This document shows, one piece after another, positions 139 to 28,020 of a DNA stretch of 64,000 nt. Source of the DNA: Phycisphaerae bacterium (GTDB taxonomy: Bacteria; Planctomycetota; Phycisphaerae; SM23-33); contig JBDKRA010000029.1 of assembly GCA_039683615.1 (NCBI GenBank), forward strand, positions 53,256-117,255. The letters are read 5' to 3'. A program made the translations under genes and the position numbers. The notes under the pieces are model-generated. The model had not been told where the DNA came from and ran no database searches. It saw only the letters and a program-made list of their open reading frames with translations. Every line of letters starts with the position of its first letter. Within the stretch, counting starts at the first letter, position 1.

Positions 139-1377
139 ATGGCAATCATCGTCATGAAATTTGGCGGCACCAGCGTGGCCACGCCGGAAAAGATCCGGTC
201 GGCGGCCCAGCGCGCCATCGACGCGAAGAAGAAGGGCTACCAGGTCATCATGGTCGTCTCGGCGATGGGTCACGAGACCGACCGCCTGGAAGAACTCGCC
301 AAGGCCGTCTGCCGCGGCGACGAACCCTCCAAGCGCGAACGCGACCAGTTACTCGCCACCGGCGAGCAGGTCACCATCTCGCTGGTGGCCATGGCGCTGG
401 AGCACATGGGCACGCCGGCGATCAGCTTCACGGCCGGGCAGATCGGCATGATCACCGACGAGGCGCACACCAAGGCCCGCATTCACCGCATCGACGCCAA
501 GCGCATTCACGACCAGCTCAACGCCGGCAAGATCGTCATCATCGCCGGCTTCCAGGGCGTAACGGCCGCCGGGCACGTCACCACGCTCGGTCGCGGCGGC
601 AGCAATGTCACGCTGGTGGCGGTGGCCGCGGCGGTCAAGGCGGAAGTATGCGAGAACTACACCGACGTCGACGGCGTGTACACCGCCGACCCGCGGATCG
701 TGCCCAACGCCCGCAAGATCGAGCGGATCAGCTACGACGAAATGCTCGAGCTGTCCAGCCAGGGCTTTAACGTGCTGCACAACCGGGCCGTCGAGTTCGC
801 CAAGAAGTACGACGTGCCCATCCACGTCCGCAGCAGTCTCAACACCAACAAAGGAACGATGATCGTGGCTGAAACACAATCCATGGAACGCATCGTCGTC
901 AGCGGAGTGGCGCTGAAAGAAAACATCGCCCGCGTCTCGCTCAAGGACGTGCCGGACCGGCCCGGCAGCGCCGCCCAGATCTTCCACTCGCTGGCCGTGG
1001 GCAAGGTCGTCGTCGACGACATCATCCAGACCGAGAACGAGTCCGGCACCGCGGACATCTCCTTCACCGTCGACCTGGGCGAACTCAGCGACGCCGAAAA
1101 AGTCGTCTCCGCGCTGGCCAAGAGCCTCAAATGCCGCTACCGCGTCGAAAAGGACCTGGCCAAAGTCTCGGCCGTCGGCGTCGGCATGCGAGTGCACACC
1201 GGCGTGGCCGAACGCATGTTCGCCGCCCTGGCCAAGGCCAAGGTCAACATCGACAACATCACCACCAGCGAAATCAAGATCTCGGTCATCGTAAACCAAA
1301 AGCAAGGCCGCGACGCCCTCCGGGCCGTCCACGACGCCTTCGACCTGGGCAAGCCCGCCAGGAAGGCCAAGAAGTAA
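139..1377 (+). CDS. lysC: Aspartate kinase (aspartokinase)
   Basis: MKFGGTSVATPEKI amino-acid kinase N-terminus and C-terminal ACT-domain region. Start moved to the internal ATG at 139 (MAIIVMKFGG); the upstream 34 codons have no homology signal. Confidence 0.9.
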   Translation: MAIIVMKFGGTSVATPEKIRSAAQRAIDAKKKGYQVIMVVSAMGHETDRLEELAKAVCRGDEPSKRERDQLLATGEQVTISLVAMALEHMGTPAISFTAGQIGMITDEAHTKARIHRIDAKRIHDQLNAGKIVIIAGFQGVTAAGHVTTLGRGGSNVTLVAVAAAVKAEVCENYTDVDGVYTADPRIVPNARKIERISYDEMLELSSQGFNVLHNRAVEFAKKYDVPIHVRSSLNTNKGTMIVAETQSMERIVVSGVALKENIARVSLKDVPDRPGSAAQIFHSLAVGKVVVDDIIQTENESGTADISFTVDLGELSDAEKVVSALAKSLKCRYRVEKDLAKVSAVGVGMRVHTGVAERMFAALAKAKVNIDNITTSEIKISVIVNQKQGRDALRAVHDAFDLGKPARKAKK

Positions 1378-2978: not shown

Positions 2979-4310
<1,332 letters not shown>

Positions 4311-4347
4311 CCCCCCAGCGCGGCGGGCGCTCAATGCGGCCGGACGC

Positions 4348-4881
4348 ATGGTCGGCTTTCTCGTGCTGACCGTGCCGGCGATGACAGTGTTCGGCTCGGC
4401 CGTACTGCTGCCGCATATCGTCAATCAACAGCACAATCAGTACCTGCTGGAGAGCAAGCAGGCCCAGGTGGCCGATTGGGAAGTGCTCGTCGCCGCCAAC
4501 GACAAGCTCATCGCGCACCTGCCCGTCGACGAGGTGCTGACCAAGCGGCTGGCCGAAAACCAGTTAGCGGTCATACCCGACGGCGAGGAAGTGATGCCGC
4601 CCGTGGGGGCGGCCAACCCGCCGGATCTGCTGCATCCCCAGCCCCACAAGCGCCCCAGCCCCCCGCCGGCGTGGCTGCTGCGCCTCAGTCGGCGATTGAG
4701 CAATCCCCCCACCCGCCGCGGCCTGGTGGTCCTGTCGCTGGGAACGATCATCACCGCGTACTTCCTGTTCTCGCCGCCGTCGGCCGCGCGGCGCAGGAAG
4801 GAAGATGGGCAATCTCCTGAAGGCTCCGCGCCGCTTGAAGAAGCTCAGGAAGAGAATCCCCAACCGGCGACAACGCCGTGA
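4348..4881 (+). CDS. Hypothetical membrane protein (Pro-rich C-terminus)
   Basis: ORF directly downstream of eno. Hydrophobic N-terminal segment FLVLTVPAMTVFGSAVLL. No recognisable family. Start chosen downstream of the eno stop. Confidence 0.35.
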   Translation: MVGFLVLTVPAMTVFGSAVLLPHIVNQQHNQYLLESKQAQVADWEVLVAANDKLIAHLPVDEVLTKRLAENQLAVIPDGEEVMPPVGAANPPDLLHPQPHKRPSPPPAWLLRLSRRLSNPPTRRGLVVLSLGTIITAYFLFSPPSAARRRKEDGQSPEGSAPLEEAQEENPQPATTP

Positions 4882-4935: not shown

Positions 4936-6609
4936 TTACGCCATCAAGTCCGACTGCTCGGGCTGCATCAAGCCTCGCAGTTTCTTCATGGCCTGAAGTT
5001 CGATCTGGCGGACGCGCTCTTTGGAGATGCCCAACTGGCGGCCGAGCTCTTCGAGAGTCTTGCTCTTGCCCGAGGGGTCGAGGCCGTAATGGTCGATGAG
5101 GATGGCCCGCTCCTGCGGGTTGAGCCGGGTCAGAACCGCGTCGATGCTCTCGCGAAGCTCTCGCAGATTCAGTTCGTTGGGATCGTACGTGCGAAGACTG
5201 GCGGCGATATCGAGCACTTCCTCGTTGCCGGTGGCGAAGCGGTCAAGCTGGTACAACTCCTTGGGCACGCTGCGGGCGAAGTTGCGGATGATGGCCCAGG
5301 AGGCATACGTGCTGAAACGGTTGCCTCGCGTGTAGTCGAACTTCTCCACCGCTCGCATGAGCGAGACGTTGCCGTCACTGATAAGCTCGAAAAGCGTCTG
5401 GGCCTTGCCCACGTGTTTCTTGGCGATGGACACCACCAGGCGCAGGTTCGCGCGGATGATCTGGTTCTTGACGACGTTGGACTGCAACAGGAGGTCTTCG
5501 ATTTCCCGCAGCTTACGCGTGCGGACGCGATTGAGGTCGATCCCCTTGCGCTGCTTGTCGGCCTTGTACTTGAGGTAGTTGTACCGGCGGAAGAGATCCT
5601 TCTCGCCCTCGCTGGTCAGCAGGGGCACGTCGTAGAGAGCCCGCAGGTACGGGGGCAGATCGGACGGCGGCCGCGGGGCAGGCTTGGATGAGTCCCCGTC
5701 CAACGGCACTGCCGCCATGATGATTTCATCGGCGTTGGGCAGGTCGAACTGCGAGCTGTACACGTAATTGACTGACCGCTTGAGCAGTTGCTGCGCCCGC
5801 ACTTCGTTAACAACGCGATAGATCGTGCCTCGCGTGCGGTGGTGGCGCTGGGCCAGGGCGGGCACGGCCAGGCCCCGCAGATATCCGCGGTAGATGGCGA
5901 TCTTCTCCTGGTCGTTCAGCGGGGCGAAGAGATAGGGAAAGATGGGATCTTCGGGATGTTCGATGTCGTGGTTTCGCAGCGTGTAGCGGATGGTCTCCAT
6001 GGCCCGGCCGCTGCGTGCCGCCAGCCGCTTGGCCACGTCGCTGAGCGAGCAGTGCGTGAACAAGGCCATTCGCTTGGCACGGCGGAAGATGTCGCGGCGT
6101 TCCTGCTCGCTGAGCTGGGTGAATCGCACCGAGCGGCTGACCTCGCCTTCCTGGCGGCTGATGAACCGCTGCAGGGAGCTTTCGAGGAACGCAATTCGTT
6201 TGCGTCCGTCGGGGAAGATCATCCGCCGCGTGGGCAGCCCGCGAAGGCGCCATCGCTGGACGGTCTTGGTCGAGACGTTGTACCGATTGGCGACAGCCTG
6301 GGTATCGACGGCGGGTTCTTCGTATTCGCCGGTGCGCAGGTCGAAGCTGTCGCAGATCTTGATCATCATTTCCAGCAGATCGCGGCGGAGCCTGGACCCG
6401 AGCATGGGCCTCGGCGTGGACTTGTCGATGCTTCGCGGGCGATAGCCCGTCAGGCGGAAGACCACGAAGTCGTAGGGATACTCTTGGTCGTCGTCGAGGA
6501 TCATCGCCAGCGATTCGGCGGAATCGACGTACCCTTTCCGCAGGCGCGCAAGCCCCGCGGCCAGTTCCGCCGCCATTTCCTCCATCGCCTTGTACGCGTA
6601 TTTGCCCAC
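4936..6609 (-). CDS. RNA polymerase sigma-70 family factor with long N-terminal extension
   Basis: C-terminal half carries regions 2-4 (IRANLRLVVSIAKK, DLISDGNVSLMRAVEKFD, RFSTYASWAIIRNF, LEELGRQLGISKERVRQIELQAMKKLR). The ~280-aa N-terminal extension has extra HTH-like segments. GTG start with a GGAGAGGG RBS. Confidence 0.85.
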   Translation of the reverse strand: MGKYAYKAMEEMAAELAAGLARLRKGYVDSAESLAMILDDDQEYPYDFVVFRLTGYRPRSIDKSTPRPMLGSRLRRDLLEMMIKICDSFDLRTGEYEEPAVDTQAVANRYNVSTKTVQRWRLRGLPTRRMIFPDGRKRIAFLESSLQRFISRQEGEVSRSVRFTQLSEQERRDIFRRAKRMALFTHCSLSDVAKRLAARSGRAMETIRYTLRNHDIEHPEDPIFPYLFAPLNDQEKIAIYRGYLRGLAVPALAQRHHRTRGTIYRVVNEVRAQQLLKRSVNYVYSSQFDLPNADEIIMAAVPLDGDSSKPAPRPPSDLPPYLRALYDVPLLTSEGEKDLFRRYNYLKYKADKQRKGIDLNRVRTRKLREIEDLLLQSNVVKNQIIRANLRLVVSIAKKHVGKAQTLFELISDGNVSLMRAVEKFDYTRGNRFSTYASWAIIRNFARSVPKELYQLDRFATGNEEVLDIAASLRTYDPNELNLRELRESIDAVLTRLNPQERAILIDHYGLDPSGKSKTLEELGRQLGISKERVRQIELQAMKKLRGLMQPEQSDLMA

Positions 6610-6644
6610 AATTCCCTCTCCCTGCGGCGGGGCGGGGATTCTGC

Positions 6645-8408
6645 TTACGGTTGAGGCGCCGCCGGCGGGGGCGTCTGCGGCGGGGTGACCGCGGGCGCCT
6701 CGGGTGAGGCCGGAGGGGCGGCAGGCTCGGACGCCGCCGGCTGCGTCGCGGCAATGCCCGCCAGCCGGTCGCGCAGGTGCAATACCGGGCGCAAATACGG
6801 CGAGGCCTCACGGCTCTTCATCGCGTCGGCGATGATCTCGTTGGCTTTGCGCAGTTTCTCGGCGTCGTTCTTGAGACGATAGTGCCCCAGGTATGCCGCC
6901 GCCAACTCGCCCTGGTAGATCCAGCGATAGACCTTTTCATTCTCTTTGAGGCCTTGAATGGCCAGTTCGTAATCGCGGATCGTCTCTTCGTAGTTCTTCA
7001 ACGATTCGCCAGCCGTCACGTCGGGATTGCTCAGGTACGCCGCCAGTTCCTGGGCCTCTTTGGGCGCTGTGGCATTGGCAGCGGCCTTGGGCCAGACGTC
7101 GTTGATCGGGGCCTGCAACGCCAGCAGCCGGCGGGCGAAGATAGCCTGTTCGCTCTGGAGACCGGCGATGCGTGCGAGCACGTCGCCCTTTTCGGCCAGT
7201 CCCTCAGCGGTATTGGCGTCGGGGCCGACTAGCGCGTGGCCCAGTTCCGCCTGGCAGTTGCTGTATTCTTTCATCGCCTGGGCCTCATCGGCCTTGGCGC
7301 CCAGGGCCGCCGCGTTGACGGCGGCTACATCTTTGAGGATGGCGTCCTGCGACTCCTTGATGAGCTTGAGGCAGTCTTCTCGCTGCTGGCCGCGGCGGCC
7401 CATCTGTTCTTTGCGGTGTTCGAGCATGCTCTTGGCCATTTCGATCTTGCTGCGGCCGGCGTTGATTCGCACGCCGAGCATGCGGCGCTGTTCGAGCAGT
7501 TGCTGCACCTGGTTCTGGTTGGTGGAGATCTTGCCCTCGATCTGCCGGATCTGGGCTTCGTCTTTGAGCACGTCCTCGATCATGGCCAGGCTCTTGGCCC
7601 CGGTGATCAGACGGCTTTCGGCGCGATTCTGCCGCGCTTTCTGGGACAGGGTTGCGATCTGGTCGCGCAGCGCCGCCACCTCGTTGCCCAGGTAGATGAT
7701 CTGCTTCGAGGCCGCCTCGTGCTCTTTCTCGATGTCAGCCAATTCGGTCGTGGTCTGGTCGACGATCTTCTGCACGTCGTCATCGGGCAGGCTCAGCAGT
7801 TTGTCGTACTGGGCGAGGAACCCCAGTTGCGCCTGCACGACGCCCAGGGTGCGATCGACGCGGTTGGCATCGCGCTGCGCGTTCCAACGCTGGTTGAGCG
7901 CTTTCTGGTCGAAGCAGTAACCGCGCAGCGACATCACGCGAGCGGCCATGTGATGCGCCAAGGCCTTGATGTCCGCAGGGGCCAGGCTGTTATCGGCCAG
8001 GGCCGCTTGCAGGATCGTCTTGGCCTGCGTCAGCGCCGTCTCGGCTTGGGGGTTGACGGCGTTGGGCGCCCTGAGCCTGATGGTCTCACGGGTCACAACG
8101 GGGTCGCCGTCCTTGACAAAGGGTCCGACCCTTCCCGAGACGGAGTCTTCGTGGACAGGGGTGGACAACAGCCCCAGCGCACGCTGATAGAGGGCGTCGG
8201 CGTCGTCGACGGCCGCCACGATGCCGGCGCGGGCCTTATTGACCCCTTCCTCGTTGCGCGTCACGAAGTAGGTGAACCACACCGCCAGCACCACCAGGGC
8301 GATGATGCCGCCCACGGTCAGCAGGACGCTCTGACGGTCCGGAAACAGTTTGCCCGCCGGAGAGGCAGAGCCCGTACGGCGCCCGGATTCCTTGCGGGAT
8401 TCGGTCAT
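6645..8408 (-). CDS. Hypothetical single-pass membrane protein with long coiled-coil periplasmic region and Pro-rich tail
   Basis: Short basic N-terminus, TM segment VLLTVGGIIALVVLAVWFTYFV, heptad-rich Q/E/A/L region, C-terminal PAASEPAAPPASPEAPAVTPPQTPPPAAP. Ends 35 nt upstream of the sigma gene. Confidence 0.6.
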   Translation of the reverse strand: MTESRKESGRRTGSASPAGKLFPDRQSVLLTVGGIIALVVLAVWFTYFVTRNEEGVNKARAGIVAAVDDADALYQRALGLLSTPVHEDSVSGRVGPFVKDGDPVVTRETIRLRAPNAVNPQAETALTQAKTILQAALADNSLAPADIKALAHHMAARVMSLRGYCFDQKALNQRWNAQRDANRVDRTLGVVQAQLGFLAQYDKLLSLPDDDVQKIVDQTTTELADIEKEHEAASKQIIYLGNEVAALRDQIATLSQKARQNRAESRLITGAKSLAMIEDVLKDEAQIRQIEGKISTNQNQVQQLLEQRRMLGVRINAGRSKIEMAKSMLEHRKEQMGRRGQQREDCLKLIKESQDAILKDVAAVNAAALGAKADEAQAMKEYSNCQAELGHALVGPDANTAEGLAEKGDVLARIAGLQSEQAIFARRLLALQAPINDVWPKAAANATAPKEAQELAAYLSNPDVTAGESLKNYEETIRDYELAIQGLKENEKVYRWIYQGELAAAYLGHYRLKNDAEKLRKANEIIADAMKSREASPYLRPVLHLRDRLAGIAATQPAASEPAAPPASPEAPAVTPPQTPPPAAPQP

Positions 8409-8477
8409 GATGAAACCTTTCCAAAAGATACCTTGGCCTTATTCTACTACAGGGACACTTCGGCTGGCGAAGAATCC

Positions 8478-9140
8478 TCACGTTACGGAATCTTCCCCTT
8501 GCCCTGCGGCCGACAGATCGCACACGGCGCGGATCGCCAGGTCGCTGACCCGCGCCAGGTCGATAAACTGCCGGGCGTAGGCCTTGGGCCGGCCTTGCAC
8601 CGCCTGCCAGACCAGCACCGCGCCGCCCTGCGTCTCGATGCTCATCGGCGCCAGCGTGTCGCCGACGACGGCGCCCAATGCCTTGGCCATAGTCCGGTCG
8701 CCGCGGCAGAGCCAACTCTCCTGCCGCCAGTGATGCCGCTGCAGCGCCAGCGGCGCTGCGGGGACATCCTGCTCGTGCCACATCAGCGCCGCCGTCAGAG
8801 GCCGGTCCATCTCGACGACGACCACGCTGTAATGGCGGGCCAAACGGCTGATCCCGTGCCCGCACTCATAGCGAAAGTCGAACGCCCGAACGCTCCGGCC
8901 GTTGACGCGCCCATAGGTCACGTTGTGCGCGCGGGGGCTGTGGCCGCTGGCGATCAGCGCGAACCGTCCGTACAGGCCAGGCAGATCGAACGGGTCGTCG
9001 CGCGAAAACCGCATGTTCAACTGGCGGGCCTGGGCGGCCATGGCCCTGCTGCGCCGCCGCTGGCGGCGGGCCATGACCATGAACGAAACCACAGACCCCC
9101 CCAGCGCGGCCACCAGCAGCACGATCAACAAGTCCTGCAC
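8478..9140 (-). CDS. Hypothetical membrane-anchored protein
   Basis: N-terminal TM segment LLIVLLVAALGGSVVSFMVMA followed by RRQRRRSR. No family recognised. Tightly spaced in the same minus-strand unit. Confidence 0.5.
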   Translation of the reverse strand: MQDLLIVLLVAALGGSVVSFMVMARRQRRRSRAMAAQARQLNMRFSRDDPFDLPGLYGRFALIASGHSPRAHNVTYGRVNGRSVRAFDFRYECGHGISRLARHYSVVVVEMDRPLTAALMWHEQDVPAAPLALQRHHWRQESWLCRGDRTMAKALGAVVGDTLAPMSIETQGGAVLVWQAVQGRPKAYARQFIDLARVSDLAIRAVCDLSAAGQGEDSVT

Positions 9141-9171
9141 ATCGCATCTCGTTTAGGAGGCGGCGGTATTG

Positions 9172-10371
9172 TTATTCCGTCGCGGGGGCGCCTCGCAGGG
9201 CGGGGTCCGCCGGCGGAGCCGCCTTGCCGGCCGGCAGCGTCACCGTCACGCCGTACTGACCGCCCTCGGGCGGACCCTTGAGCGACGAAATCCAGTCCAG
9301 CATCTGCCTGTACGCAGCCGCCTTGACGTCCAGGTACAGCGGCGTCAACTCGCGGCCGGGGTGCACCTGCGTGGGGCGAACAGCTTCCTTGCGCTGCAGG
9401 TAAGTCAGCAGCAGCGAGTCCTCGCGCTGCTGGCGGTCGATCAGCGACCACTGACCGTGGCGGGTCGAGCTAAGGATCAGGAAGTTCGTGTAGTCGACGC
9501 GATCGTTGCGCGCCGGGGTGCCAAGCAATCTGAAATTGCCCTGCCCCCTGGGCCCGCCATGGCACTGGACGGTGGCGCACTGCGTCGCAATGCCCGCCCA
9601 GATGCGGCCTCGGAATTCCTTCAGCGGTTGCGGGTCGCCCAGGAGAAGAACGTCGTTGCGAAGCGGGTCGTTCCACTCGGTGTTCTCGACGATGTACTTG
9701 GCCTTGTCGCCGCTGGACAGGGCGTTGAAGCGGTTCTCGTCGAAGGCGGCGCCGCGGATGTCGTTGCGTCCGCGCATCGCCTTGATGAACTTTTCGAGGA
9801 CATTGTTGCGAAACCGCACCGGCAGGGAATCGCGCTTGGGGCTGAACTCGCCCATGCGGATTTTGTAGATGCCTTCCTGCGTCACCAGCCAGTTCTGGGG
9901 CACCTCCGACGGCAACCCCGCTTCAGGCGGCGCGACCGACACGCCGCCCTGGCCGCCGGCGACAGGGGCATTGAGTTTCTCGTTCACGTGCGCCAGAAGC
10001 GCCTTGGCCATCTCGATATTGGGATCGATCTCGATGGCCTTCTGATATTCGTCGCGGGCGGCGTCGAGCAGGCCTTTCTGCTGGGCCCACTGGCCAAGTT
10101 GCAGATGGGCCCGGGCATCCTTGGCGTCAATCTTGGCGGCCCGCTGGTTGTATTCGTCGATGGGATTGACCTGCTCGATGACTTTCTCGACCTGATCATT
10201 GGTGAACGTCAGCACGGCCATGCGGGTGTCGATTCGATATCCCTCGGGCGTTTTGGTGACTTCGCCCTTGAACGTGCGTCCATCCTTGAGCACCAGAACC
10301 TGGGTGGCGCCTGCCGCCATCGCCGCCAGGATTCCCACCACCGCCAATCCGGCCATCACGTGTCTTAGCAT
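9172..10371 (-). CDS. Hypothetical secreted protein with TPR-like N-terminal region
   Basis: Signal-like segment MLRHVMAGLAVVGILAAMAAGA. Helical-repeat region (AHLQLGQWAQQKGLLDAARDEYQKAIEIDPN). Track ORF extends to 10485 but would overlap the tRNA-Cys, so the start is placed at the internal M. Confidence 0.55.
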   Translation of the reverse strand: MLRHVMAGLAVVGILAAMAAGATQVLVLKDGRTFKGEVTKTPEGYRIDTRMAVLTFTNDQVEKVIEQVNPIDEYNQRAAKIDAKDARAHLQLGQWAQQKGLLDAARDEYQKAIEIDPNIEMAKALLAHVNEKLNAPVAGGQGGVSVAPPEAGLPSEVPQNWLVTQEGIYKIRMGEFSPKRDSLPVRFRNNVLEKFIKAMRGRNDIRGAAFDENRFNALSSGDKAKYIVENTEWNDPLRNDVLLLGDPQPLKEFRGRIWAGIATQCATVQCHGGPRGQGNFRLLGTPARNDRVDYTNFLILSSTRHGQWSLIDRQQREDSLLLTYLQRKEAVRPTQVHPGRELTPLYLDVKAAAYRQMLDWISSLKGPPEGGQYGVTVTLPAGKAAPPADPALRGAPATE

Positions 10372-10460: not shown

Positions 10461-10534
10461 AGGCGGCAGTGGGATTCGAACCCACGAATAACGGATTTGC
10501 AATCCGTCGCCTTGGTCCGCTTGGCTATGCCGCC
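10461..10534 (-). tRNA. tRNA-Cys (GCA)
   Basis: Cloverleaf read by eye: acceptor GGCGGCA/TGCCGCC, T-arm GTGGGTTCGAATCCCAC, anticodon loop TTGCAAA. 74 nt. Confidence 0.85.
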
Positions 10535-10588
10535 GCTTGCGTCACTTGAGAATACTAGCCGCCGCCCTCGATATCAAGCGCGGTCCTG

Positions 10589-13500
10589 TTAACGGTTTAG
10601 AATCTGGCGGAGGTCGGCCTTGATCGCGTTGAACCCGGCGTATATGCCGCCGAAGGTCTTGTCGGCGGCCTCGAGGTTGCTGACATACACGCTCAGGTTT
10701 TCGATCTTGCCGCGATAGTCTGCCAGTTTCTTCTCGCGATCGGCGTTGCTCAGCGATGCCAGATCCGCCCTGCCGGGATCGGGGCGGAACGTCTCCAGCC
10801 AGCAGCGGCAGTAGGCCAGTTCCGATTCCCAGTACTGCCCGGCCTGGCGGGCCTTGTCGAATCCCTGGGTCAGGCGCTGGTAGATGGTCAGGGCCTTGTC
10901 GAACATCTTAAGCCCTTCATAGCTGCGCCCCATGCCCCAGAATGTCTTGGCGTCGAAGGCGATGCCCTCTTTCTCTTCGTCGGCCAGCCGGGCCATCAAC
11001 TGCTGATGCCCCCGCAGGCACATGTCGACCAGGCGGGCGACGTTCTGGGTGTCAGGCCTGGACTGCGAGGTCGAGTTTACTTTGCCCAGGGCCTTGCCCA
11101 ATTCGCCGGTGACATTCTTGAGATCTCGCGCGACGAACGAAGAACGTACGAACTCCGGCGGCAATTCATCCACGGTCTTCTTGAGCAGGTCGTATACTTG
11201 CGCCGGATTCTCGCGAACCTGGACCAGGCCCTGCTGGCGCGCATCGAACTTGGCGGCGATAGCGGCTTCCTTGGCCTTGCGATCGGCGTTCTGCGCAGCC
11301 GACACTTCTTCAAAGATCGTGCGCGCGTCGGCGAACCTGGCGGCCTGGATCAGCGCGTCGCCGTAGAGTTGCTTGCGATCCAGCAGCGTCTGCGCATCGG
11401 CATTGTCCTTGGTTTCGTACAACATCTTGGCGAACTTGGCATAGCCCTCGCGGTAGGCCTTCAGTCGCGCCTCGGTGGTAGGCCCGCGAGCGCCCTGGTC
11501 GAGCTGCTTGATTGTCTTCTGGATATTCGTGATGAGCAGGTCGATCAGCGGACCGCCGCGGTCGGGGTATGCTTTCAGGAACTCGTTGAGGGCTTCCAGC
11601 GCCGCCTCGATCTGGGCCGTCTCGATCAGCTTGCGGATGCGGAACTCCATGCTGGCTTCGATGATCGTCGTGCCAGGCCACTTCGTCGGCAACTTCTTGT
11701 CATCCTCAAGTGCCTTGGTCGTGTTGCCTAGATGATTGTATGTCAGCGTGATGACCAGATAATCCGCCCGCGCTCCCCACTCTCGCAGCATCTTCGCCAG
11801 AGTCCCGGCCGAGGGCTTGGACGCTTCCGCCGCAGCCTTCTCGCTGTACTGGCCCGCCTGGAAGACCAGGTCGCGCACTTGCTTGTCCGTCGGCGGAGTC
11901 GTGCTTTCCTTGAGCGCGTCGATATTTTCCGCTTCCAGATCCAATGCCCAGTACTGGGCCTCCATGTAGGCCGCGTGATCGGCTGGGGGAACTTTGCGGA
12001 ACGCCGCAGCCGCCCGAGCGCGAAGGGCAATCTTCTCGTTGAGCATTTCCGCCGTGTCCGGGGTGGCCTCGACCAGGCGCTGCAGTTCCACGCCCAACTC
12101 GAGGTAATGGGTCAGGACAATATTGGGATCCTGACCGCCGGCCGCAGCCGCCTTCTGGGCCGCCTGCACCCACTCGGGTTTTTCCAGCAGCGTCTCCAGC
12201 GCCTTGACATATTCGCGACGCAGGTCCGGACTGATGGAACGCTTCTTCTCCTGCAATTCCCCCACCAGTCCCGAATAGCAGATCACGCCGTTGAAGGCCG
12301 CCGACGGCGCCAAGCCATGGGCGGCGTTCTGTACGGCGATCTCGACATACGACCGCGCCGCCGCCAGCGTCTCATGCTTGACCAGGTCGATCTTCGCCAG
12401 ATACCACAGCGCCTGCGGACGCATCTGTTTGGCGGCCGCGTCGTCCTTGCGCGTCAACAGTTCCTTGAGAGCCTTTTCCGGACCGGCCAGCAGTTGCAGG
12501 CGGTGCGCCTCGGGAAGCTTGTCGTCGCCCCAGGAACGGTAGTTGCCCATGGCCAGCGCCATCAGCACGACGGGGTTGGCTTTCTTGAGCGTCTCGGGAT
12601 CGTCCAGCTTGATGTTGGAGGCATACTTGCGGACGATGACTTCGTACAGCACTTCCTGCACGTCGGTGCGGCCGCTGTACTTGTTGATGAATTGGACCAG
12701 GACGTCCAGCGCCTGGCGCCGGTACTCGGCGGACTTGGCCGCGTCGCCGCCCTTGGCCGCCGCGGCATCCCAGATGTAGCTGCGCAGGATCACGGCGCTG
12801 ACATCCTGCTGCACCTCGATCGCCGCGGCATCTTCGACCCTGGCATTTTGCCGAGCCAGAATGACGGACTTCTTGAAGAAGTCGTCGACGGCCGTCATCG
12901 CATCAGTGTACTTGCCGCCTTGAGCCAGCACGCGCGGGATTTCAAACAACGCCTGGATGCGCGGGGCGGCCGGCGCATCGTTGTCGTCCACCTGCCGCAG
13001 GAGCTTGATCGCCCGGTCGGTCTGGCCCAGGGCGCCGGCGGCCGTGCCTTCCACCAGCAGACCCCGGTACATGTCGATGCCGCTCTTGGCGCACTGGCTG
13101 CCGGCCGCCTGGGCCTTGGTGAGGTAGAGGGCCCGCTCGGGGCTGTTCTCGGGCAGGGCCAGGCCCCGGTAGAGCAATATCCACATCCCCATGCGCAGCA
13201 CTTCGTTGCGGAGTTCCTCGATCTTGCCTTTTTCCAGGTTGTCTTCAAGAGTGGTGCAGTTGTTGATCATGTCCCGCAGTTGATCCTGCAGGTCGACGAT
13301 CAGGGGGGCGGCATTGCGCGTCAGGACCACGATCATGCGGCGGTCTTCATCGGTGCCCCGCAGGAAGATCATGTTCAGGCCGTAGGGCGTCTGCACGCGG
13401 TTCAACCCGCTGATCATGGCTAACTTGAACTGCTCCGAACAGTAGGTCATCTGCGACTTGAGATTGTTGGGCTTGGCGGCGGTCTTGGCGGCCTCGACCA

Positions 13501-13867
13501 CCCGAAGCTGCCGCACGACCGCGTCATTGAGCCACGCCAGCCGCTGGTCCTGGCTGAAGGGCTGGTCCATGTCGGTGGCCTTGGCGACCAGCGAACTGAT
13601 GGCGATGACGTCCTGGGCGACGCCGCCCTGCTTGGCCAGCAGCGACTGCTGGTATTCGACGATTTCCCACATCCCCATGTCCTGCATCAGGCGGTGCAGG
13701 CCAACGAGGTCGATGCCCTGCATCGCGCCGGCTTCGGGCGCCGCCGACGAGTTGCCGCCGGCGCCTTCGTCCTGGGCCAAGGCCCCCCCCGTCGCCAGCG
13801 CTGCGGCCAGCACACTCACTGCCACGCGTGATTTCCAACCGCCCTTAGGCATGGTCGATATCCTCAT
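10589..13867 (-). CDS. Large secreted TPR/helical-repeat protein (1092 aa)
   Basis: Signal peptide AVSVLAAALATGGALAQ. Long helical repeat-rich sequence. No catalytic motif. Ends 15 nt after the first ExbD gene. Confidence 0.7.
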   Translation of the reverse strand: MRISTMPKGGWKSRVAVSVLAAALATGGALAQDEGAGGNSSAAPEAGAMQGIDLVGLHRLMQDMGMWEIVEYQQSLLAKQGGVAQDVIAISSLVAKATDMDQPFSQDQRLAWLNDAVVRQLRVVEAAKTAAKPNNLKSQMTYCSEQFKLAMISGLNRVQTPYGLNMIFLRGTDEDRRMIVVLTRNAAPLIVDLQDQLRDMINNCTTLEDNLEKGKIEELRNEVLRMGMWILLYRGLALPENSPERALYLTKAQAAGSQCAKSGIDMYRGLLVEGTAAGALGQTDRAIKLLRQVDDNDAPAAPRIQALFEIPRVLAQGGKYTDAMTAVDDFFKKSVILARQNARVEDAAAIEVQQDVSAVILRSYIWDAAAAKGGDAAKSAEYRRQALDVLVQFINKYSGRTDVQEVLYEVIVRKYASNIKLDDPETLKKANPVVLMALAMGNYRSWGDDKLPEAHRLQLLAGPEKALKELLTRKDDAAAKQMRPQALWYLAKIDLVKHETLAAARSYVEIAVQNAAHGLAPSAAFNGVICYSGLVGELQEKKRSISPDLRREYVKALETLLEKPEWVQAAQKAAAAGGQDPNIVLTHYLELGVELQRLVEATPDTAEMLNEKIALRARAAAAFRKVPPADHAAYMEAQYWALDLEAENIDALKESTTPPTDKQVRDLVFQAGQYSEKAAAEASKPSAGTLAKMLREWGARADYLVITLTYNHLGNTTKALEDDKKLPTKWPGTTIIEASMEFRIRKLIETAQIEAALEALNEFLKAYPDRGGPLIDLLITNIQKTIKQLDQGARGPTTEARLKAYREGYAKFAKMLYETKDNADAQTLLDRKQLYGDALIQAARFADARTIFEEVSAAQNADRKAKEAAIAAKFDARQQGLVQVRENPAQVYDLLKKTVDELPPEFVRSSFVARDLKNVTGELGKALGKVNSTSQSRPDTQNVARLVDMCLRGHQQLMARLADEEKEGIAFDAKTFWGMGRSYEGLKMFDKALTIYQRLTQGFDKARQAGQYWESELAYCRCWLETFRPDPGRADLASLSNADREKKLADYRGKIENLSVYVSNLEAADKTFGGIYAGFNAIKADLRQILNR

Positions 13868-13882
13868 CGTGAAATAACTCCA

Positions 13883-14284
13883 TCAAACGCCCGCAAGCAA
13901 AATCACGTCCGGCACCTTGGCTCGATGGACGGCGTTGACGGCCTCAACGACGTGATCCCACGCCACGTCGCCGTCGGTGCGCACCCGGATTTCCAGCCGA
14001 AGGCCCGCAACCTTCTGTCGTACGATTTCCTGATAGAGGTCCTGGGCGTCGCTGGCCCAGAACGTGGTGCCGTCGATACGATATACCGCTGCATCACCCT
14101 GGGCCCCCACCCGCAGCGTCAACTGCCGCACCATATCCAAACCGCCGCCTCCGCCGGGCAGGGCGGCCGGAATCAGCCCTTCCGTGGGGCGCATCTGAAA
14201 CCCGATCAGGAAGAAGATCAGGAGCTGGAAGGTCACGTCGATCATCGGCGTCAGGCTCAAAGCGGATGTTCGCGGACTTTTCAT
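13883..14284 (-). CDS. exbD: Biopolymer transport protein ExbD/TolR family (paralog 1)
   Basis: LTPMIDVTFQLLIFFLIGFQ TM helix typical of ExbD/TolR. Start placed at MKSP. Confidence 0.8.
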   Translation of the reverse strand: MKSPRTSALSLTPMIDVTFQLLIFFLIGFQMRPTEGLIPAALPGGGGGLDMVRQLTLRVGAQGDAAVYRIDGTTFWASDAQDLYQEIVRQKVAGLRLEIRVRTDGDVAWDHVVEAVNAVHRAKVPDVILLAGV

Positions 14285-14306
14285 ATCCGTCTCCCCGAAA
14301 CGGCGG

Positions 14307-14810
14307 TCAACTGCTGCCGCTTGGCGCAAAGGCCACATTCTTGAGCCCCGCACGCACGGCGGCGTTGAAGGCCTCGACGACAAACTCCCATTGCACGTCC
14401 CCTTCGGCGCGGATCACGACGGGAACCTTATCGGAACCCTGGCTGCTTCTCTGCGCTTCCAGATGACGTTTCAATTCTTCAGAATCAGTGGTCTCGATCA
14501 GCGTCTGTTCGATCTGGTAGACGGCCTGATCTTTCTCCTCGCCCTGCGGGCGGACGCGGACGAAGACCGTCTTGAAGATATTCTGTTGGTCGACGCTGCC
14601 GATGCCTTCGGCAGGCAGCGAGGAGGGGATCAGCCCTTCCGTCTCGCGCATCTGAAAGCCGATCAGGAAGAAGATGATGAGCTGAAAGGTCACGTCGATC
14701 ATCGGCGTCATCGGCGGTTGCATGGCGCCGGAGGGCGGCTTGCGCTTCTTGCGGGGCGGAATATAATGGACGGCTTCTTCGCCCTGAATCTTTTTTACCG
14801 ATTTGGCCAT
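14307..14810 (-). CDS. exbD: Biopolymer transport protein ExbD/TolR family (paralog 2)
   Basis: MTPMIDVTFQLIIFFLIGFQ; basic cytoplasmic N-terminus. Confidence 0.85.
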   Translation of the reverse strand: MAKSVKKIQGEEAVHYIPPRKKRKPPSGAMQPPMTPMIDVTFQLIIFFLIGFQMRETEGLIPSSLPAEGIGSVDQQNIFKTVFVRVRPQGEEKDQAVYQIEQTLIETTDSEELKRHLEAQRSSQGSDKVPVVIRAEGDVQWEFVVEAFNAAVRAGLKNVAFAPSGSS

Positions 14811-14813
14811 GGG

Positions 14814-15368
14814 TTATTCGCTTCCCCTCTTAGGCAAGGCCGTGATGTTCATCTTGGGGATCCTGGCCCCCAGTCCGGCCATGATCACCGGCTCGACGTC
14901 GGACCATCGCGTGCGCTTATCGGCGCGGACAACCATGGTGAAGTCTTTTTCGGGCTTGTCGGCCGCCCGCGCGGCATTCTTGCGATCTTCCAGCATGGGC
15001 ACCATCATGGCGACGGCGTTGTCCGGCTTGATCTCTTGCTTGCGCAGGTTGCTCTGGCGTGAAGGCATGCGGATCATATAGTATTCCACGCGCCCTCGCA
15101 GATAGCTGGGGACCGCCTGTCCTTTGTACTTCATGGCCGAGTCTTCGGAGACCACGTTGACGATGACGTGGTTTCCGGCCTTGTTGACCGCCTGGTCATT
15201 CAGGGCTTGGCTGACCTTCGGGCGCGACAGGGCGATCCGCAAGTCCAGTTCGTCCGACGCGCTCTGGCCGGAGAGCATGAAGAAAATGATCAACTGGAAC
15301 GTGACGTCGATCATCGGCGTCATGTTCATGTCGGCCTTGCTGTCGGCAAATATGTTTTTCTTGGCCAT
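14814..15368 (-). CDS. exbD: Biopolymer transport protein ExbD/TolR family (paralog 3)
   Basis: MTPMIDVTFQLIIFFMLSG; 3-nt gap to paralog 2. Confidence 0.85.
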   Translation of the reverse strand: MAKKNIFADSKADMNMTPMIDVTFQLIIFFMLSGQSASDELDLRIALSRPKVSQALNDQAVNKAGNHVIVNVVSEDSAMKYKGQAVPSYLRGRVEYYMIRMPSRQSNLRKQEIKPDNAVAMMVPMLEDRKNAARAADKPEKDFTMVVRADKRTRWSDVEPVIMAGLGARIPKMNITALPKRGSE

Positions 15369-15396
15369 AGCAGTTTCTCCCCGGCCGCCGACCGCT

Positions 15397-16038
15397 CTAG
15401 CTGCGCCCGGCGGGACGGAACGTCGCGATCAATTCCTGGCACGTGGTCATCGCCTCGCTGGTCAGCGAGTCGATGCGGTTGCGCAGGAAGGTAAAGCACG
15501 ACAGCACGGGAATGGCGATCATCAGCCCTTCCAGCGTCGTCACCAGGGCCAGACCGATGGGCTTGGCGATGGCCGAAGCCTCGACGGTGCCCATGCGCAC
15601 GATATCAAAGAAGGCCATGATCATGCCTTGCACCGTCCCCAGCAGCCCCAGCATCGGACCGACGTTTCCGATCAGGTTGAGCCACTCGATGGTTCGCAGC
15701 AGCTTGGTGGTGCGCTCCTCGGCGGCCTCTTCCATGGCGCGCTCCATGGCGGGGTATCCGTGGGCGGCCTCGTTGAGCGCCGCATGCATGACGTAGCCCA
15801 TGAAGCTGGGCTCATTTTCCGTCAGGTCGATCACGGCGCGATACTGGCGCTCTTCAAACATCTGCTGGATCTGCTCGCGCAGGGCCGGGGGCATGATGTT
15901 CATGCGACGCACCATCATGATGTATTGCACCATCAGCGCCACGGCCAGGACGCTCAGAAGCCAGAGCACCCAGCCGACGAAACCGCAGTCGAGAAACAAA
16001 GCCGAAAACCATGTCATTTGCTGTTGTTGTGCGAGCAT
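15397..16038 (-). CDS. exbB: MotA/TolQ/ExbB proton-channel family protein
   Basis: Three TM helices and the PMLGLLGTVQGM...GLALVTTLEGLMIAIPVL signature of ExbB/TolQ. Confidence 0.88.
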   Translation of the reverse strand: MLAQQQQMTWFSALFLDCGFVGWVLWLLSVLAVALMVQYIMMVRRMNIMPPALREQIQQMFEERQYRAVIDLTENEPSFMGYVMHAALNEAAHGYPAMERAMEEAAEERTTKLLRTIEWLNLIGNVGPMLGLLGTVQGMIMAFFDIVRMGTVEASAIAKPIGLALVTTLEGLMIAIPVLSCFTFLRNRIDSLTSEAMTTCQELIATFRPAGRS

Positions 16039-16102
16039 GCGCCAATCTCCGTAAAAGTTCCTGCTGGGGACGCTACGGCTCGGCCGCGCGTCGCTGGGTG
16101 TC

Positions 16103-17173
16103 TTACTTAAGCCGGGTCAAAGCCTGGCGGGCCGCCGTGGACGTCACCGTCCGAGGGTAATCGTTGAGGATCTTCTGGTAACACTTCTTCGCCGCGGCGG
16201 TATTGGGGGTCTTGAACGATTCATTGGCCTGGCCGGCCAGGTACAGCGCGCGGGCCTTGTCATCCTCGCCGGCGCCGCCGAGCATCAGCACGCGCATGGC
16301 GTTGAGCCCCGCCTGGCAAAGCAGGGTCTGCTGCTGGGCGCCGGCCGCTGCCTGTCCCAGCGTCAACTGCGCCTGCCCCATCGCCAGCAGGGCCCGGACC
16401 AGTTCGGTCTGGTTGAACTGCTCCATCAGCGGCTGCAGCGCCGCGACCGCCTTGTCGGGCTGCTGGCTCTTGAGGAACTGCTCGGCGGCCTCGATCTTGC
16501 TGACAAACGCCACGCGCCCCCCGTCGGCGGTGTTGGTGTCGGGCTGAGCGGCGCGGCTGATTTTTTCGGCCAGCGTGGCGGCCTCGGCGTCGCGCCCCTG
16601 AATCTGCAGGAGTTTCATGCGATACGGATCGACCGCGCTGCGATACGCGGGGCTGGTCTGCGAGTCCTTGCCCGCCAGCAACTCGATGGCTCGATCGGCC
16701 GCGTCGCTCTTTTCCTTGGGAAGGGGCGGGCGCAGGGCAATGGTCTCCTTCGAGGCGCTGTTGGCGTCCATCAGCGACAGCCACGCCGCCACGGCCCGGT
16801 CGATCTGGCCCGCTCGCACGGCCGCAGAGAGCATGCGGTGGGAAATCAGCGGTTTCAGCCAGGCTTTATCTTCGGGGGCGGGCTTCTTGAGCAACTGCTC
16901 GTACGCGGACAGGGCCTGATCGTACTGCCGCTCTTTCACGAGCTTTTCGGCCGCATCCAGGTCAGGAACGCCGCTGATGGAGATTTCCTTCAGATCGGCG
17001 ATCGAGCCGATGATCTGCTTCATGGTCGGCAGGCGGAAGTAGATGATGCAGTCTTTGACGTCGGTGACGACGATGCCTTCGCCATAGGGCAGTTTGAGCG
17101 TGATCGAGTCGGCCCGCGCAGCGACGCCGCTCATCAAGATCGCGCCGGCAACAATGGCTGCTATGTGTTTCAT
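16103..17173 (-). CDS. Secreted TPR-repeat protein
   Basis: Signal peptide AIVAGAILMSGVAARA. TPR-like helical repeats. 3-nt gap to the upstream VWA gene. Confidence 0.7.
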   Translation of the reverse strand: MKHIAAIVAGAILMSGVAARADSITLKLPYGEGIVVTDVKDCIIYFRLPTMKQIIGSIADLKEISISGVPDLDAAEKLVKERQYDQALSAYEQLLKKPAPEDKAWLKPLISHRMLSAAVRAGQIDRAVAAWLSLMDANSASKETIALRPPLPKEKSDAADRAIELLAGKDSQTSPAYRSAVDPYRMKLLQIQGRDAEAATLAEKISRAAQPDTNTADGGRVAFVSKIEAAEQFLKSQQPDKAVAALQPLMEQFNQTELVRALLAMGQAQLTLGQAAAGAQQQTLLCQAGLNAMRVLMLGGAGEDDKARALYLAGQANESFKTPNTAAAKKCYQKILNDYPRTVTSTAARQALTRLK

Positions 17174-17176
17174 GGC

Positions 17177-27838: not shown

Positions 27839-27850
27839 TCAAACAACTCA

Positions 27851-28008: not shown

Positions 28009-28020
28009 GTCAGTCTTTCT

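Follow-up and report, generated by a model that had tools for sequence, protein, structure and literature searches.

The 557-aa protein that ends a four-gene minus-strand block in the window (the whole 64,000-nt stretch of Phycisphaerae bacterium contig JBDKRA010000029.1 that was analysed) belongs to a sigma-70 lineage that occurs across Planctomycetota and is uncharacterised. This lineage has a fixed architecture that lacks domain sigma3, and it is rather probable that it represents a phylum-wide, housekeeping-type second sigma factor with a basic HTH head that probably adds DNA contacts. An identical protein from a Planctomycetaceae MAG is recorded at NCBI under the label 'sigma-70 family RNA polymerase sigma factor'. 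The features of the locus are shown in Table 1.

Table 1. Features of the extended sigma locus, with positions in the window; 'aa' refers to residues of the sigma factor
Feature	Position	Strand	Description
Extended sigma-70 family factor, 557 aa	4936..6609	-	GTG start preceded by GGGAGAGGGA
Sigma aa 1-95	6325..6609	-	Four-helix N-terminal domain, approximately neutral (pI 5.5); AF2 model
Sigma aa 96-160	6130..6324	-	Winged HTH (HTH_17, excisionase/MerR-like), pI 11.1; Pfam and AF2
Sigma aa 161-222	5944..6129	-	Tri-helical HTH, pI 10.2; AF2 helices 168-182, 189-200, 204-217
Sigma aa 226-282	5764..5934	-	sigma4/LuxR/transposase-type HTH (HTH_38/HTH_23), pI 10.6
Sigma aa 283-318	5656..5763	-	Conserved 283-297 (SSQFDLPNADEII), then acidic linker; alignment
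Sigma aa 319-450	5260..5655	-	Region 1.2, short non-conserved insert, regions 2.1-2.4; group-1-like
Sigma aa 451-481	5167..5259	-	Short acidic linker replacing domain sigma3 and region 3.2, pI 4.05
Sigma aa 482-557	4936..5166	-	Region 4.1-4.2 and stop codon; Pfam Sigma70_r4 9.5e-17
p587	6645..8408	-	Long helical periplasmic protein anchored at its N-terminus, Pro-rich tail
p220	8478..9140	-	N-terminal TM helix, Arg-rich stretch, conserved domain
p437, 399 aa	9172..10371	-	Signal peptide, TPR stretch, C-terminal domain with conserved CX4CH motif
tRNA-Cys(GCA)	10461..10534	-	5' boundary of the four-gene block; ARAGORN
Promoter-like TTGATA-17-TATTCT	10549..10577	-	Ends 15 nt before the tRNA; pattern match only
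Context genes upstream of the tRNA	10589..16038	-	Secreted TPR protein (1092 aa), three ExbD/TolR, one ExbB/TolQ; Pfam

The original prediction of a long N-terminal extension with extra HTH-like segments is borne out by Pfam HTH matches and by conservation across the phylum, and both peptides that it quoted are present (aa 111-125 and 261-274) inside these matches. The extension is real, but its length is about 315 aa rather than the approximately 280 aa first given, and it is directly followed by a recognisable region 1.2 (aa 318-345). The N-terminal domain (AF2 helices at aa 7-18, 21-37, 46-54 and 71-87, pLDDT about 70-95) matched no Pfam family, and this segment is unclassified. The winged HTH was matched by HTH_17 at aa 102-153, below the cut-off, has strands at aa 128-131 and 137-142 in the AF2 model, and has T116, R119 and W120 as invariant residues. 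Invariant in the second HTH are E205, T206, R208 and T210, and in the third R258, R260, R265, E269 and R271; the third was matched by HTH_38/HTH_23 at aa 231-269 (HTH_38 30.2 bits vs a cut-off of 27, N-terminus scanned alone). These invariant residues cluster in the third, putative recognition, helices. The three segments have pI values of 10.2-11.1, and the N-terminal 300 aa as a whole have a net charge of +13 and a pI of 9.8. The sole variable linker of the protein, at about aa 298-318, is acidic and was modelled at low confidence (pLDDT <50 at aa 304-312).

The part behind the extension had been described as normal regions 2-4, which does not hold: regions 1.2, 2 and 4 are present and sigma3 is missing. 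Pfam placed r2 at aa 385-446 and r4 at aa 493-545, with no match to Sigma70_r3 in the same scan, and the aligned region-2 and region-4 blocks are separated by about 36 residues (449-484) vs 96 in E. coli sigma70 (residues 66-161 of the fragment compared); a relative's own RpoD-like sigma has 98 aa at this place. Region 2, which carries 'STYASWAIIRNFARS' in place of the 'STYATWWIRQAITRS' of sigma70, showed 51% identity over 65 aa to that of E. coli sigma70 in BLASTP, and phmmer aligned the protein from aa 318 onwards with HrdB/SigA (Streptomyces HrdB, E 1e-33). The full-length AF2 model is poor across region 2 (pLDDT <50 at aa 399-481). Region 4.2 reads 'SKERVRQIE' vs 'TRERIRQIE' in sigma70. 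Profile comparison aligned the HTH at aa 161-222 weakly, and in register, with region 4 of the same protein (hhalign P 6.8e-5), and the hhalign probabilities of the head HTHs against that region were likewise weak (19-64%); it is a possibility, suggested by these profiles, that the head HTHs arose by internal duplication of region 4.

Members of the family were confirmed by tblastn in 586 genome stretches. The best 80 of these 586 loci encode proteins of about 555 aa each (most ORFs 550-565 aa) and cover Phycisphaerae, Sedimentisphaerales, Isosphaeraceae, Pirellulales, Planctomycetaceae and Brocadiae. Over approximately residues 1-557 the window sigma is 36-73% identical to the genome loci and to Phycisphaerae-type database proteins; Isosphaeraceae members share 77-93% identity among themselves and 42-45% with the window sigma (alignment A2). 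The order of parts is the same in the relatives, namely N-terminal domain, winged HTH, HTH, HTH, region 1.2, region 2, short linker and region 4. A profile of the N-terminus only recovered 1521 clusters (50% identity level) at E<=1e-10 and 859 at E<=1e-30; among the best 150 of the 1521, the match begins at or near the protein N-terminus in nearly all, and most are approximately 480-590 aa long. The extension is conserved like the core, with a mean column identity of 71% (62% in an alignment across two classes), and is therefore neither region 1.1 nor a variable insertion. Both of these assignments, which the original prediction had named as alternatives typical of the primary sigma (RpoD) of the clade, were rejected, given the conservation across the phylum, the basic HTH segments and the domain search of the N-terminus, which returned HTH_17 and HTH_38/HTH_23 and had no match to Sigma70_r1_1 even at E<=10. 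A literature search found no specific description of a planctomycete sigma factor extended at its N-terminus, or of a second housekeeping sigma.

Compared with group 1/2 sigma-70 factors (RpoD, HrdB/SigA, RpoS), regions 1.2, 2.1-2.4 and 4 align well, and the 4.2 motif KERVRQIE is near RERIRQIE of sigma70; unlike them, the window sigma has no acidic region 1.1 and no sigma3, replaces W434, Q437 and T440 of sigma70 by A, R and A, carries the 315-aa basic head with three HTH domains, and falls far below all RpoD/RpoS cut-offs. Its scores were 135.3 bits on TIGR02393 (RpoD_Cterm; cut-off 354) and 135.2 bits on NF004208 (cut-off 555), each in two separate stretches, and the sole curated model that it passed was the generic superfamily TIGR02937. 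With ECF sigma factors with fused extensions (C-terminal in ECF41/42, N-terminal in ECF121 BldN) it shares a core of sigma2, short linker and sigma4 and a large conserved fused extension, in both cases with no obvious universal anti-sigma factor; by analogy, the extension would be likely to modulate promoter use (PMC7826278). Unlike in ECFs, a region 1.2 stands before sigma2, which is group-1-like, the extension at the N-terminus consists of about 300 aa of HTH domains, and the family is highly conserved phylum-wide; ECFs are typically numerous, with about 10 per genome on average, and that classification reports no ECF group with the extended sigma (PMC7826278). MzaA of the MZA anti-phage system (NF041931) is also a long sigma-70 protein, to whose model the C-terminal part gave a partial score of 134 bits; the cut-off is 800 bits, regions 2 and 4 alone match, and there is no defence-gene context.

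A separate RpoD/RpoS-like sigma with regions 1.2-4, sigma3 and the WW/KQ motif is present in relatives, for which reason the extended family is probably not RpoD. Two such proteins, of 275 aa at locus L004 and of 362 aa at locus L066 (the latter adjoining rpsA), reached 203-229 bits against RpoD_Cterm over regions 2-4. Regarding Planctopirus limnophila, the supplement of a Tn-seq study lists RpoD (Plim_0214) as essential, and likewise Plim_0893 ('sigma-70 family'), the sole paralogue-group partner of Plim_0214 (PMC10632474 supplement). The essential RpoD of P. limnophila adjoins dnaG. That Plim_0893 is the P. limnophila member of the extended family is a lead, not proof: its neighbours (porin, citrate synthase) match no extended-sigma locus retrieved, the Plim_0892-0895 neighbourhood was not reproduced in L081 (Fuerstiella marisgermanici) or in the Planctomycetaceae-type contigs L082-L084, and upstream of tuf P. 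limnophila has a peptidase gene.

In the window, the sigma gene is, as originally predicted, the last of a minus-strand unit following three envelope genes (5' to 3' p437, p220, p587, sigma), and all four ORFs were confirmed within 4936-10371. The intergenic gaps are 31, 69 and 35 nt, no terminator-like site was found on the minus strand between the four genes, and the spacing in the source genome is probably tight enough for co-transcription of the trio and sigma. No promoter-like site was found within 300 nt upstream of sigma, which starts 35 nt after p587, so its expression here may depend on the upstream unit. The originally chosen start of p437 at 10371 is right, because the longer ORF (to 10485) overlaps the tRNA-Cys and the ATG is preceded by GAGGTG. 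The position of the tRNA-Cys is kept in L001, L002, L005, L006, L009 and L010 (ARAGORN), and the TPR/ExbD/ExbB context in L001, L002, L006, L009 and L010, not in L005. The promoter-like site before the tRNA is not significant alone, as the pattern scan gave 2 sites vs 2.2 expected. The ExbB/TolQ, ExbD/TolR and TPR genes lie on the same strand as the trio, as they would in an ExbB-ExbD/TolQ-TolR operon; the notion that the trio is the tail of such an operon is weakened by the conserved tRNA-Cys and the promoter-like site that intervene, and by L005, which carries the trio without ExbBD.

The topologies first assigned to the trio (p437 secreted and TPR-like, p220 membrane-anchored, p587 single-pass and helical with a Pro-rich tail) agree with prediction. 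In p437, several overlapping Pfam TPR models match aa 124-156 of the long ORF, and the Pfam scan gave no PSCyt match in the C-terminal domain despite its CX4CH. In p220 the TM helix is followed by RRQRRRSR, and the bulk of the protein is thus probably cytoplasmic; H67, E92-x-G94-H95-G96 and R99 are invariant, and p220 had no Pfam match and nothing at E<=1 in a PDB profile search. In p587 a 27-aa N-tail leads into a single TM helix, and a long part of the protein is helical; it matched no Pfam/NCBIfam family, a weak SMC-like coiled-coil match apart. Its general shape (N-terminal anchor, long helical spacer, Pro-rich stretch) resembles TonB/TolA; unlike these, it matches no TonB_C or TolA domain, and its TM helix (SVLLTVGGIIALVVLAVWFTYFV) contains no His and lacks an SHLS-type motif. 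In 8 of 10 p587 homologues a lipobox-like xxGC directly follows the hydrophobic N-terminus, so these would be periplasmic lipoproteins without a cytoplasmic segment to hold sigma.

Conservation of the four-gene order, as assessed with profile HMMs of p437, p220 and p587, held in the closest clade and failed beyond it: the trio lies upstream of sigma in 10 of 11 informative close-clade loci, where the block tRNA-Cys-p437-p220-p587-sigma recurs, and in none of 68 others. The close relative L008 has a sigma with the whole N-terminus kept and no trio within 9 kb upstream. The p587-sigma gap in the relatives is usually 170-500 nt (about 1.6 kb, 1650 nt, in L005); three of them carry TTGCCA-N17-xATACT, a match of the sigma70 promoter type, some 90-100 nt before the sigma gene begins, and the match in L010 is a different one, TTGCGA-N17-GATAAT, at -52. 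In three orders of Planctomycetia, sigma lies upstream of tuf-secE-nusG-rplKAJL (13 genome loci as well as L081, L082 and L084), and no partner gene is conserved beside sigma across the phylum. In a second Phycisphaerae clade, a possible distant relative of p587 (the c72 family) lies directly upstream of sigma in 4 loci; hhalign linked the two families at 94%, a score that coiled-coil composition may inflate, and the HMM search between them was negative, so that profile-profile comparison alone joins them. As far as these profiles go, the c72-type protein leaves some room for a functional link.

With respect to mechanism, sigma2 and sigma4 would bind the protein to core RNA polymerase, as in all sigma-70 relatives. 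Its -35 element would be sigma70-like, since region 4.2 differs little from that of sigma70 in its residues, and its -10 element would be a different one, given the A, R and A noted above; the protein could not make the sigma3 contacts with an extended -10 element. In the weakest step, the basic HTH head would add DNA contacts, probably upstream of the promoter, like a built-in activator. The strong conservation, together with the place upstream of the tuf cluster in Planctomycetia, suggests a housekeeping-type role alongside RpoD rather than one in stress response.

Two other readings of the protein itself were weighed. It is unlikely that it is the lineage's primary housekeeping RpoD/SigA with a clade-specific N-terminal region, as might be concluded from the label 'RNA polymerase primary sigma factor' given to many homologues by JGI, from group-1 sigmas (HrdB/SigA) being the nearest database relatives of region 2, from the very strong conservation and from the adjoining tuf-nusG-rpl cluster in Planctomycetia. 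This reading is opposed by the fragmented 135-bit scores far below both RpoD cut-offs, the missing sigma3, -10-reading residues unlike those of group 1, the separate sigma of the relatives (once beside rpsA) and the essential RpoD beside dnaG in P. limnophila. HTH folds also mediate protein contacts, e.g., those of region 4 with anti-sigmas and activators, and the head might not bind DNA at all, serving instead as a pseudo-region-4 docking or regulatory module that binds a partner or auto-inhibits the core, comparable to the sigma-like domain of PhyR or to the extensions that some ECF sigmas carry. Strongly basic HTHs (pI 10-11) with invariant residues in the recognition helices are typical of DNA binding, and this, along with the lack of a phylum-wide partner gene, makes such a docking head improbable, even though the head HTHs weakly match region 4 in register and ECF extensions are known cis-regulators (PMC7826278).

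The original prediction had joined the four genes into a cell-envelope-coupled sigma module, with p587 as an anti-sigma factor or signalling scaffold. In such a module p587 or p220 would hold sigma at the membrane and free it on an envelope signal in the style of ECF/anti-sigma pairs, which we regard as very unlikely. Class I pairs (RpoE-RseA, SigW-RsiW) do resemble the locus in that the sigma gene adjoins same-strand genes of single-pass membrane proteins. An anti-sigma factor carries, N-terminal to its TM helix, a cytoplasmic anti-sigma domain of about 60-90 aa and is found together with its sigma; here, p587 has just its 27-aa tail and lipoprotein-like homologues, evidence against a role as anti-sigma factor, the topology of p220 is reversed (TM helix first, domain after), neither matched an anti-sigma family, and neither co-occurs with sigma outside one clade. 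The tight same-strand spacing with no terminator-like site, the lack of an own promoter-like site for the window sigma, the block kept in the close clade, the membrane anchor and probably cytoplasmic conserved domain of p220, and the p587-like single-pass helical protein in the second clade would be consistent with coupling; the claim is opposed by the absence of the trio from all 68 more distant loci and L008, by the long gaps (170-1650 nt) in relatives, four of which have promoter-like sites there, by the tuf-secE-nusG-rplKAJL setting in Planctomycetia, and by a sigma core that is group-1-like, not ECF. The three proteins p437, p220 and p587 are envelope proteins, not regulators of sigma, and their place beside it looks like inherited gene order in one Phycisphaerae-like sub-lineage, not a signalling module. 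For annotation, envelope genes beside this sigma should not be called anti-sigma factors.

To our knowledge, little is known of transcription initiation in Planctomycetota. The extended sigma is an undescribed, moderately interesting sigma-70 variant, which neither of the names given by annotation pipelines ('primary sigma factor', 'sigma-70 family') describes. A sigma factor of near-constant length across a phylum that has lost sigma3 and gained approximately 300 aa of conserved basic HTH domains would imply unusual promoter recognition, and we know of no model bacterium for which this mode has been described. If Plim_0893 is the P. limnophila member, the family would be essential and testable in a genetically tractable planctomycete. 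It is possible, though doubtful, that Planctomycetota run two essential housekeeping-type sigmas, RpoD and a sigma3-less one whose triple-HTH head reads an extra upstream element; were this true, a large class of planctomycete promoters would be tripartite and recognised by a single sigma-plus-activator chain.

The 557-aa sigma factor encoded in the window gave two Pfam matches in its core, Sigma70_r2 (aa 385-446) and Sigma70_r4 (aa 493-545); neither region 3 nor region 1.1 was found by these models. In a search of PDB sequences (E about 1e-33), aa 318-450 were aligned with regions 1.2-2.4 of Streptomyces HrdB and other group-1 sigma factors, and aa 479-546 with region 4. Pairwise alignment with the C-terminal part of E. 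coli sigma70 (51% identity over region 2) left about 36 residues between regions 2.4 and 4.1, compared with 96 in sigma70, and the gap recurred when the factor was aligned with a relative's own RpoD-like sigma factor. The factor therefore lacks domain sigma3, and the "normal regions 2-4" of the original prediction have to be corrected. The RpoD, RpoS, RpoH and SigB models all scored far below cut-off, with their matches in two separate pieces. Region 2.4 of the family reads STYASWAI(I/M)(R/K)NFAR (sigma70 counterpart, STYATWWIRQAITR), with A, R and A at the positions of sigma70 W434, Q437 and T440, and region 4.2 carries KERVRQIE, near the RERIRQIE of sigma70. By analogy with the established roles of these residues in sigma70, we infer from the similar region 4.2 and the three changed positions that the factor would read a sigma70-like -35 element, but the -10 element differently. 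In the full-length AlphaFold2 model, aa 399-481, comprising regions 2.2-2.4 (the best-conserved part of the protein) and the linker, showed pLDDT values below 50, while the N-terminal extension was modelled confidently; the low values probably reflect a shallow alignment.

The extra helix-turn-helix (HTH) segments proposed for the N-terminal extension (the head) were recovered by Pfam as HTH_17 (aa 102-153) and HTH_23/HTH_38 (aa 231-269). AlphaFold2, using a 30-sequence alignment, gave high confidence for aa 1-300 (pLDDT 85 for the head modelled alone) and resolved a four-helix domain, a winged HTH and two tri-helical HTH units. The three HTH segments have a pI of 10.2-11.1, the first 95 aa and the two linkers being neutral to acidic, and the positions that are invariant in the head are concentrated in helix three of each HTH (T116/R119/W120; E205/T206/R208/T210; R258/R260/R265/E269/R271). 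This distribution of charge and invariant residues is what would be expected of a DNA-binding module, and the basic pattern is the opposite of that of the acidic, DNA-mimicking region 1.1. As the best mechanistic guess, the head would add DNA contacts that compensate for, or reach past, those lost with sigma3. The main alternative is that it acts as a docking or auto-inhibitory pseudo-region 4; the tri-helical units gave weak in-register profile-profile matches to the factor's own region 4 (P 7e-5 and 1e-3), and a region-4 origin of these units is possible. Two further readings of the extension were ruled out: a region 1.1 by the Pfam result and the basic HTH segments, and a lineage-specific insertion by its conservation, which equals that of the core throughout the family, the only variable part being approximately 20 residues before region 1.2.

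Full-length relatives number thousands in the protein database. Among the best 120 (61-100% identity over the full length, 546-609 aa), every named source was Planctomycetota or a Phycisphaerae MAG. With one genome scanned per species, 586 stretches with the family were confirmed, and the best 80 loci came from Phycisphaerae, Sedimentisphaerales, Singulisphaera and other Isosphaeraceae, Pirellulaceae, Botrimarina, Mariniblastus, Fuerstiella, Thermoguttaceae and Kuenenia. The length of the ORF varies little around 555 aa, apart from a subgroup of about 490-520 aa in which the first domain is shorter; identity is 77-93% within Isosphaeraceae and 53-94% within Fuerstiella-like Planctomycetaceae. 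A profile of the head only, searched against 1.84 billion cluster representatives, recovered 2003 proteins (1521 at E<=1e-10, 859 at E<=1e-30). Almost every one of the best 150 carries the head at or close to its N-terminus. Their length is mostly about 480-590 aa, shorter members probably having been truncated at contig ends; no stand-alone or otherwise fused head was found among these 150 of 2003. The extension therefore defines a conserved family. Contigs of MAG JAQBZB01 (L050 and L065) encode two distinct extended sigma factors (44% and 41% identical to that of the window), which could be paralogues or the product of a mixed bin.

All four minus-strand ORFs of the original prediction, i.e., the sigma factor and three envelope-protein genes upstream of it (p437, p220 and p587; the trio), are present as described. 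The proposed start of p437 is correct, since its ATG is preceded by GAGGTG and the alternative longer ORF, which reaches 10485, runs into a tRNA-Cys(GCA) gene. The intergenic gaps are 31, 69 and 35 nt, without a terminator-like site between the four genes on the minus strand, and the GTG start codon of the sigma factor is preceded by GGGAGAGGGA. A promoter-like TTGATA-17-TATTCT ends 15 nt before tRNA-Cys; it is a pattern only, as such matches are no more numerous in the region than in shuffled sequence. A GGGCCTC/GAGGCCC hairpin follows tRNA-Cys. This tRNA gene separates p437 from a Ton/Tol-like or Bat-like envelope cluster on the same strand, conserved in five relatives, which encodes three ExbD/TolR proteins, one ExbB/TolQ, TPR and VWA-domain proteins and then a 1092-aa secreted TPR protein (TPR1092). 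A gene convergent with the sigma gene, for a protein of 199 aa with two TM helices and no family match, occupies this position in six relatives as well; it is followed by enolase here, as it is in L004 and L005. The second sigma factor of the window is a FliA/WhiG (sigma-28) type (251.6 bits, cut-off 189.6) in an ordinary flagellar regulatory cluster. G+C is 0.68-0.72 at about 24000-36000, against 0.61-0.65 elsewhere in the window.

Coordinates of features in the window, in the sigma factor and in related loci
Feature	Sequence	Coordinates	Strand	Remark
Enolase	window	3006-4310		
199-aa protein	window	4282-4881	+	two TM helices
Extended sigma factor	window	4936-6609	-	557 aa
p587	window	6645-8408	-	587 aa
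p220	window	8478-9140	-	220 aa
p437	window	9172-10371	-	399 aa from true start
p437 CX4CH motif	window	~9559-9579	-	
tRNA-Cys(GCA)	window	10461-10534	-	
TTGATA-17-TATTCT	window	10549-10577	-	promoter-like
ExbB/ExbD/TPR/VWA cluster	window	13883-18325	-	
FliA/WhiG (sigma-28)	window	22024-22818	-	
MinD/ParA-type ATPase	window	23032-23880	-	FlhG-like
SRP54-type GTPase	window	23877-24971	-	FlhF-like
700-aa ORF	window	24952-27054	-	
Four-helix domain	sigma factor	aa 1-95		AlphaFold2
Winged HTH	sigma factor	aa 96-160		AlphaFold2
Two tri-helical HTH units	sigma factor	aa 161-222 and 226-282		AlphaFold2
Second sigma factor	L004	7938-8765	+	275 aa
Second sigma factor	L066	4782-5870	+	362 aa, directly after rpsA
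Elements of tuf-type neighbourhood	L081	8195-8637 and 10222-10295		

Gene neighbourhoods were compared over the 80 loci using tblastn, all-against-all ORF clustering and profile HMMs. The trio lies upstream of the sigma gene in ten loci (L001-3, L005-7, L009-12), all those with a sigma factor at least 55% identical to that of the window except L004, in which the contig ends at the sigma gene, and L008, in which the trio was not found within 9 kb upstream. The four-gene arrangement is thus conserved in this close clade, and is absent from all of the 68 more distant loci (0/68). In the six loci that reach far enough (L001, L002, L005, L006, L009 and L010), tRNA-Cys directly precedes the p437 homologue, with ExbB/ExbD/TPR1092 genes before it in all but L005. 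In Planctomycetia the sigma gene precedes a tRNA cluster, after which come tuf, rpmG, secE, nusG and rplKAJL (13 genome loci, Fuerstiella marisgermanici and two metagenomic contigs); the order in L081, L014, L046, L082 and L084 is sigma, tRNA-Thr/Tyr/Gly/Thr, tuf, rpmG, tRNA-Trp, secE, nusG, rplKAJL, and in L083 the sigma gene adjoins rpsN and rpsR instead. Here 28 loci have, upstream of the sigma gene, a divergent gene for a secreted protein of about 450-476 aa. A third neighbourhood is found in a Brocadiae-like group, and other Phycisphaerae show various arrangements. A possible exception to the clade restriction is found in four Phycisphaerae loci (L031, L039, L042 and L047), where the gene directly upstream encodes a protein of 618-656 aa that has an N-terminal TM helix and a long helical stretch; its profile-profile match to p587 (94% probability, E 8.5e-8) is of a kind that coiled-coil composition can inflate, and an HMM search yielded no link between the two. 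Loci without the trio still encode a sigma factor of complete architecture. The presence of the trio looks like gene order inherited in a single clade, and the proposed envelope-coupled sigma module is not supported.

Spacing in relatives differs from that in the window. There, 170-500 nt usually separate the stop codon of p587 from the start of the sigma gene (1648 nt in L005), TTGCCA-N17-xATACT occurs about 90-100 nt upstream of the sigma gene in three relatives and TTGCGA-N17-GATAAT at -52 in a fourth, whereas no such match was found within 300 nt upstream in the window. These wider gaps and promoter-like matches are read as pointing to a promoter that the sigma gene would normally own; in the window, where the Pro-rich tail of p587 appears to have run into the intergenic region, the gene is probably read through from upstream. 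Short Pro-rich C-terminal tails are also present on the p587 homologues of L001 and L002.

Hydropathy agrees with the topologies suggested for the trio. The N-terminus of p437 resembles a signal peptide, and the protein contains a TPR stretch on which several Pfam TPR models overlap. In nine of ten full-length homologues F[RK]xx[VI]W is followed, after seven residues, by CxxxxCHG...G.[FL][KR]L, whose CX4CH is similar to a haem-c site and to the PSCyt1 signature of planctomycetes; the region gave no Pfam match. In p220 the N-terminal TM helix is followed by RRQRRRSR, and its bulk is therefore probably cytoplasmic. p587 has an N-tail of 27 aa, a single TM helix and a long helical region. The idea that p587 could be an anti-sigma factor or scaffold is weakened by its homologues (L001-L012 set), in eight of ten of which a short hydrophobic N-terminus ends in a lipobox-like xxGC (LIGC, VAGC, TAGC, LLGC, AAGC, FAGC, LAGC and PPGC); as judged from sequence, these would be periplasmic lipoproteins lacking a cytoplasmic segment. 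The p587 of the window has lost the cysteine, kept the 27-aa tail and looks like a signal-anchored protein. Neither p587 nor p220 matched an anti-sigma family in the family searches, to which a PDB profile search was added for p220.

An identity of the extended factor with RpoD is unlikely, as two relatives carry a separate RpoD-like sigma factor with regions 1.2-4. In the Phycisphaerae loci L004 and L066, a second sigma factor with regions 1.2, 2, 3 and 4 and a WW..KQ motif is encoded within 4-6 kb of the extended one. These proteins are RpoD/RpoS-like without region 1.1, reach 203-229 bits against RpoD_Cterm with one unbroken match, below the RpoD cut-offs, and may be the true housekeeping sigma factor of Phycisphaerae. 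According to a Tn-seq study of Planctopirus limnophila (PMC10632474), RpoD (Plim_0214), located beside DNA primase, and its only paralogue-group partner Plim_0893 ('sigma-70 family') are both essential; the conservation table in its supplement gives a first count of 45 for each of the two, presumably how many planctomycete genomes have a homologue. The paralogue rule of that study (length ratio at least 0.6, bit-score ratio at least 0.1-0.2) would admit an extended sigma factor of about 555 aa, but not a 200-aa ECF factor. None of the retrieved sigma loci matched the Plim_0892-0895 neighbourhood; as a lead, Plim_0893 is rather likely to be the P. limnophila member of the family. Literature searches for a description of this family found none. 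The extended sigma factor exists beside an RpoD-like one, in Planctomycetia in a translation/transcription gene neighbourhood, and is a member of an undescribed, phylum-wide and highly conserved sigma-70 variant in which group-1-like regions 1.2, 2 and 4 are combined with a basic triple-HTH head and sigma3 is lacking.
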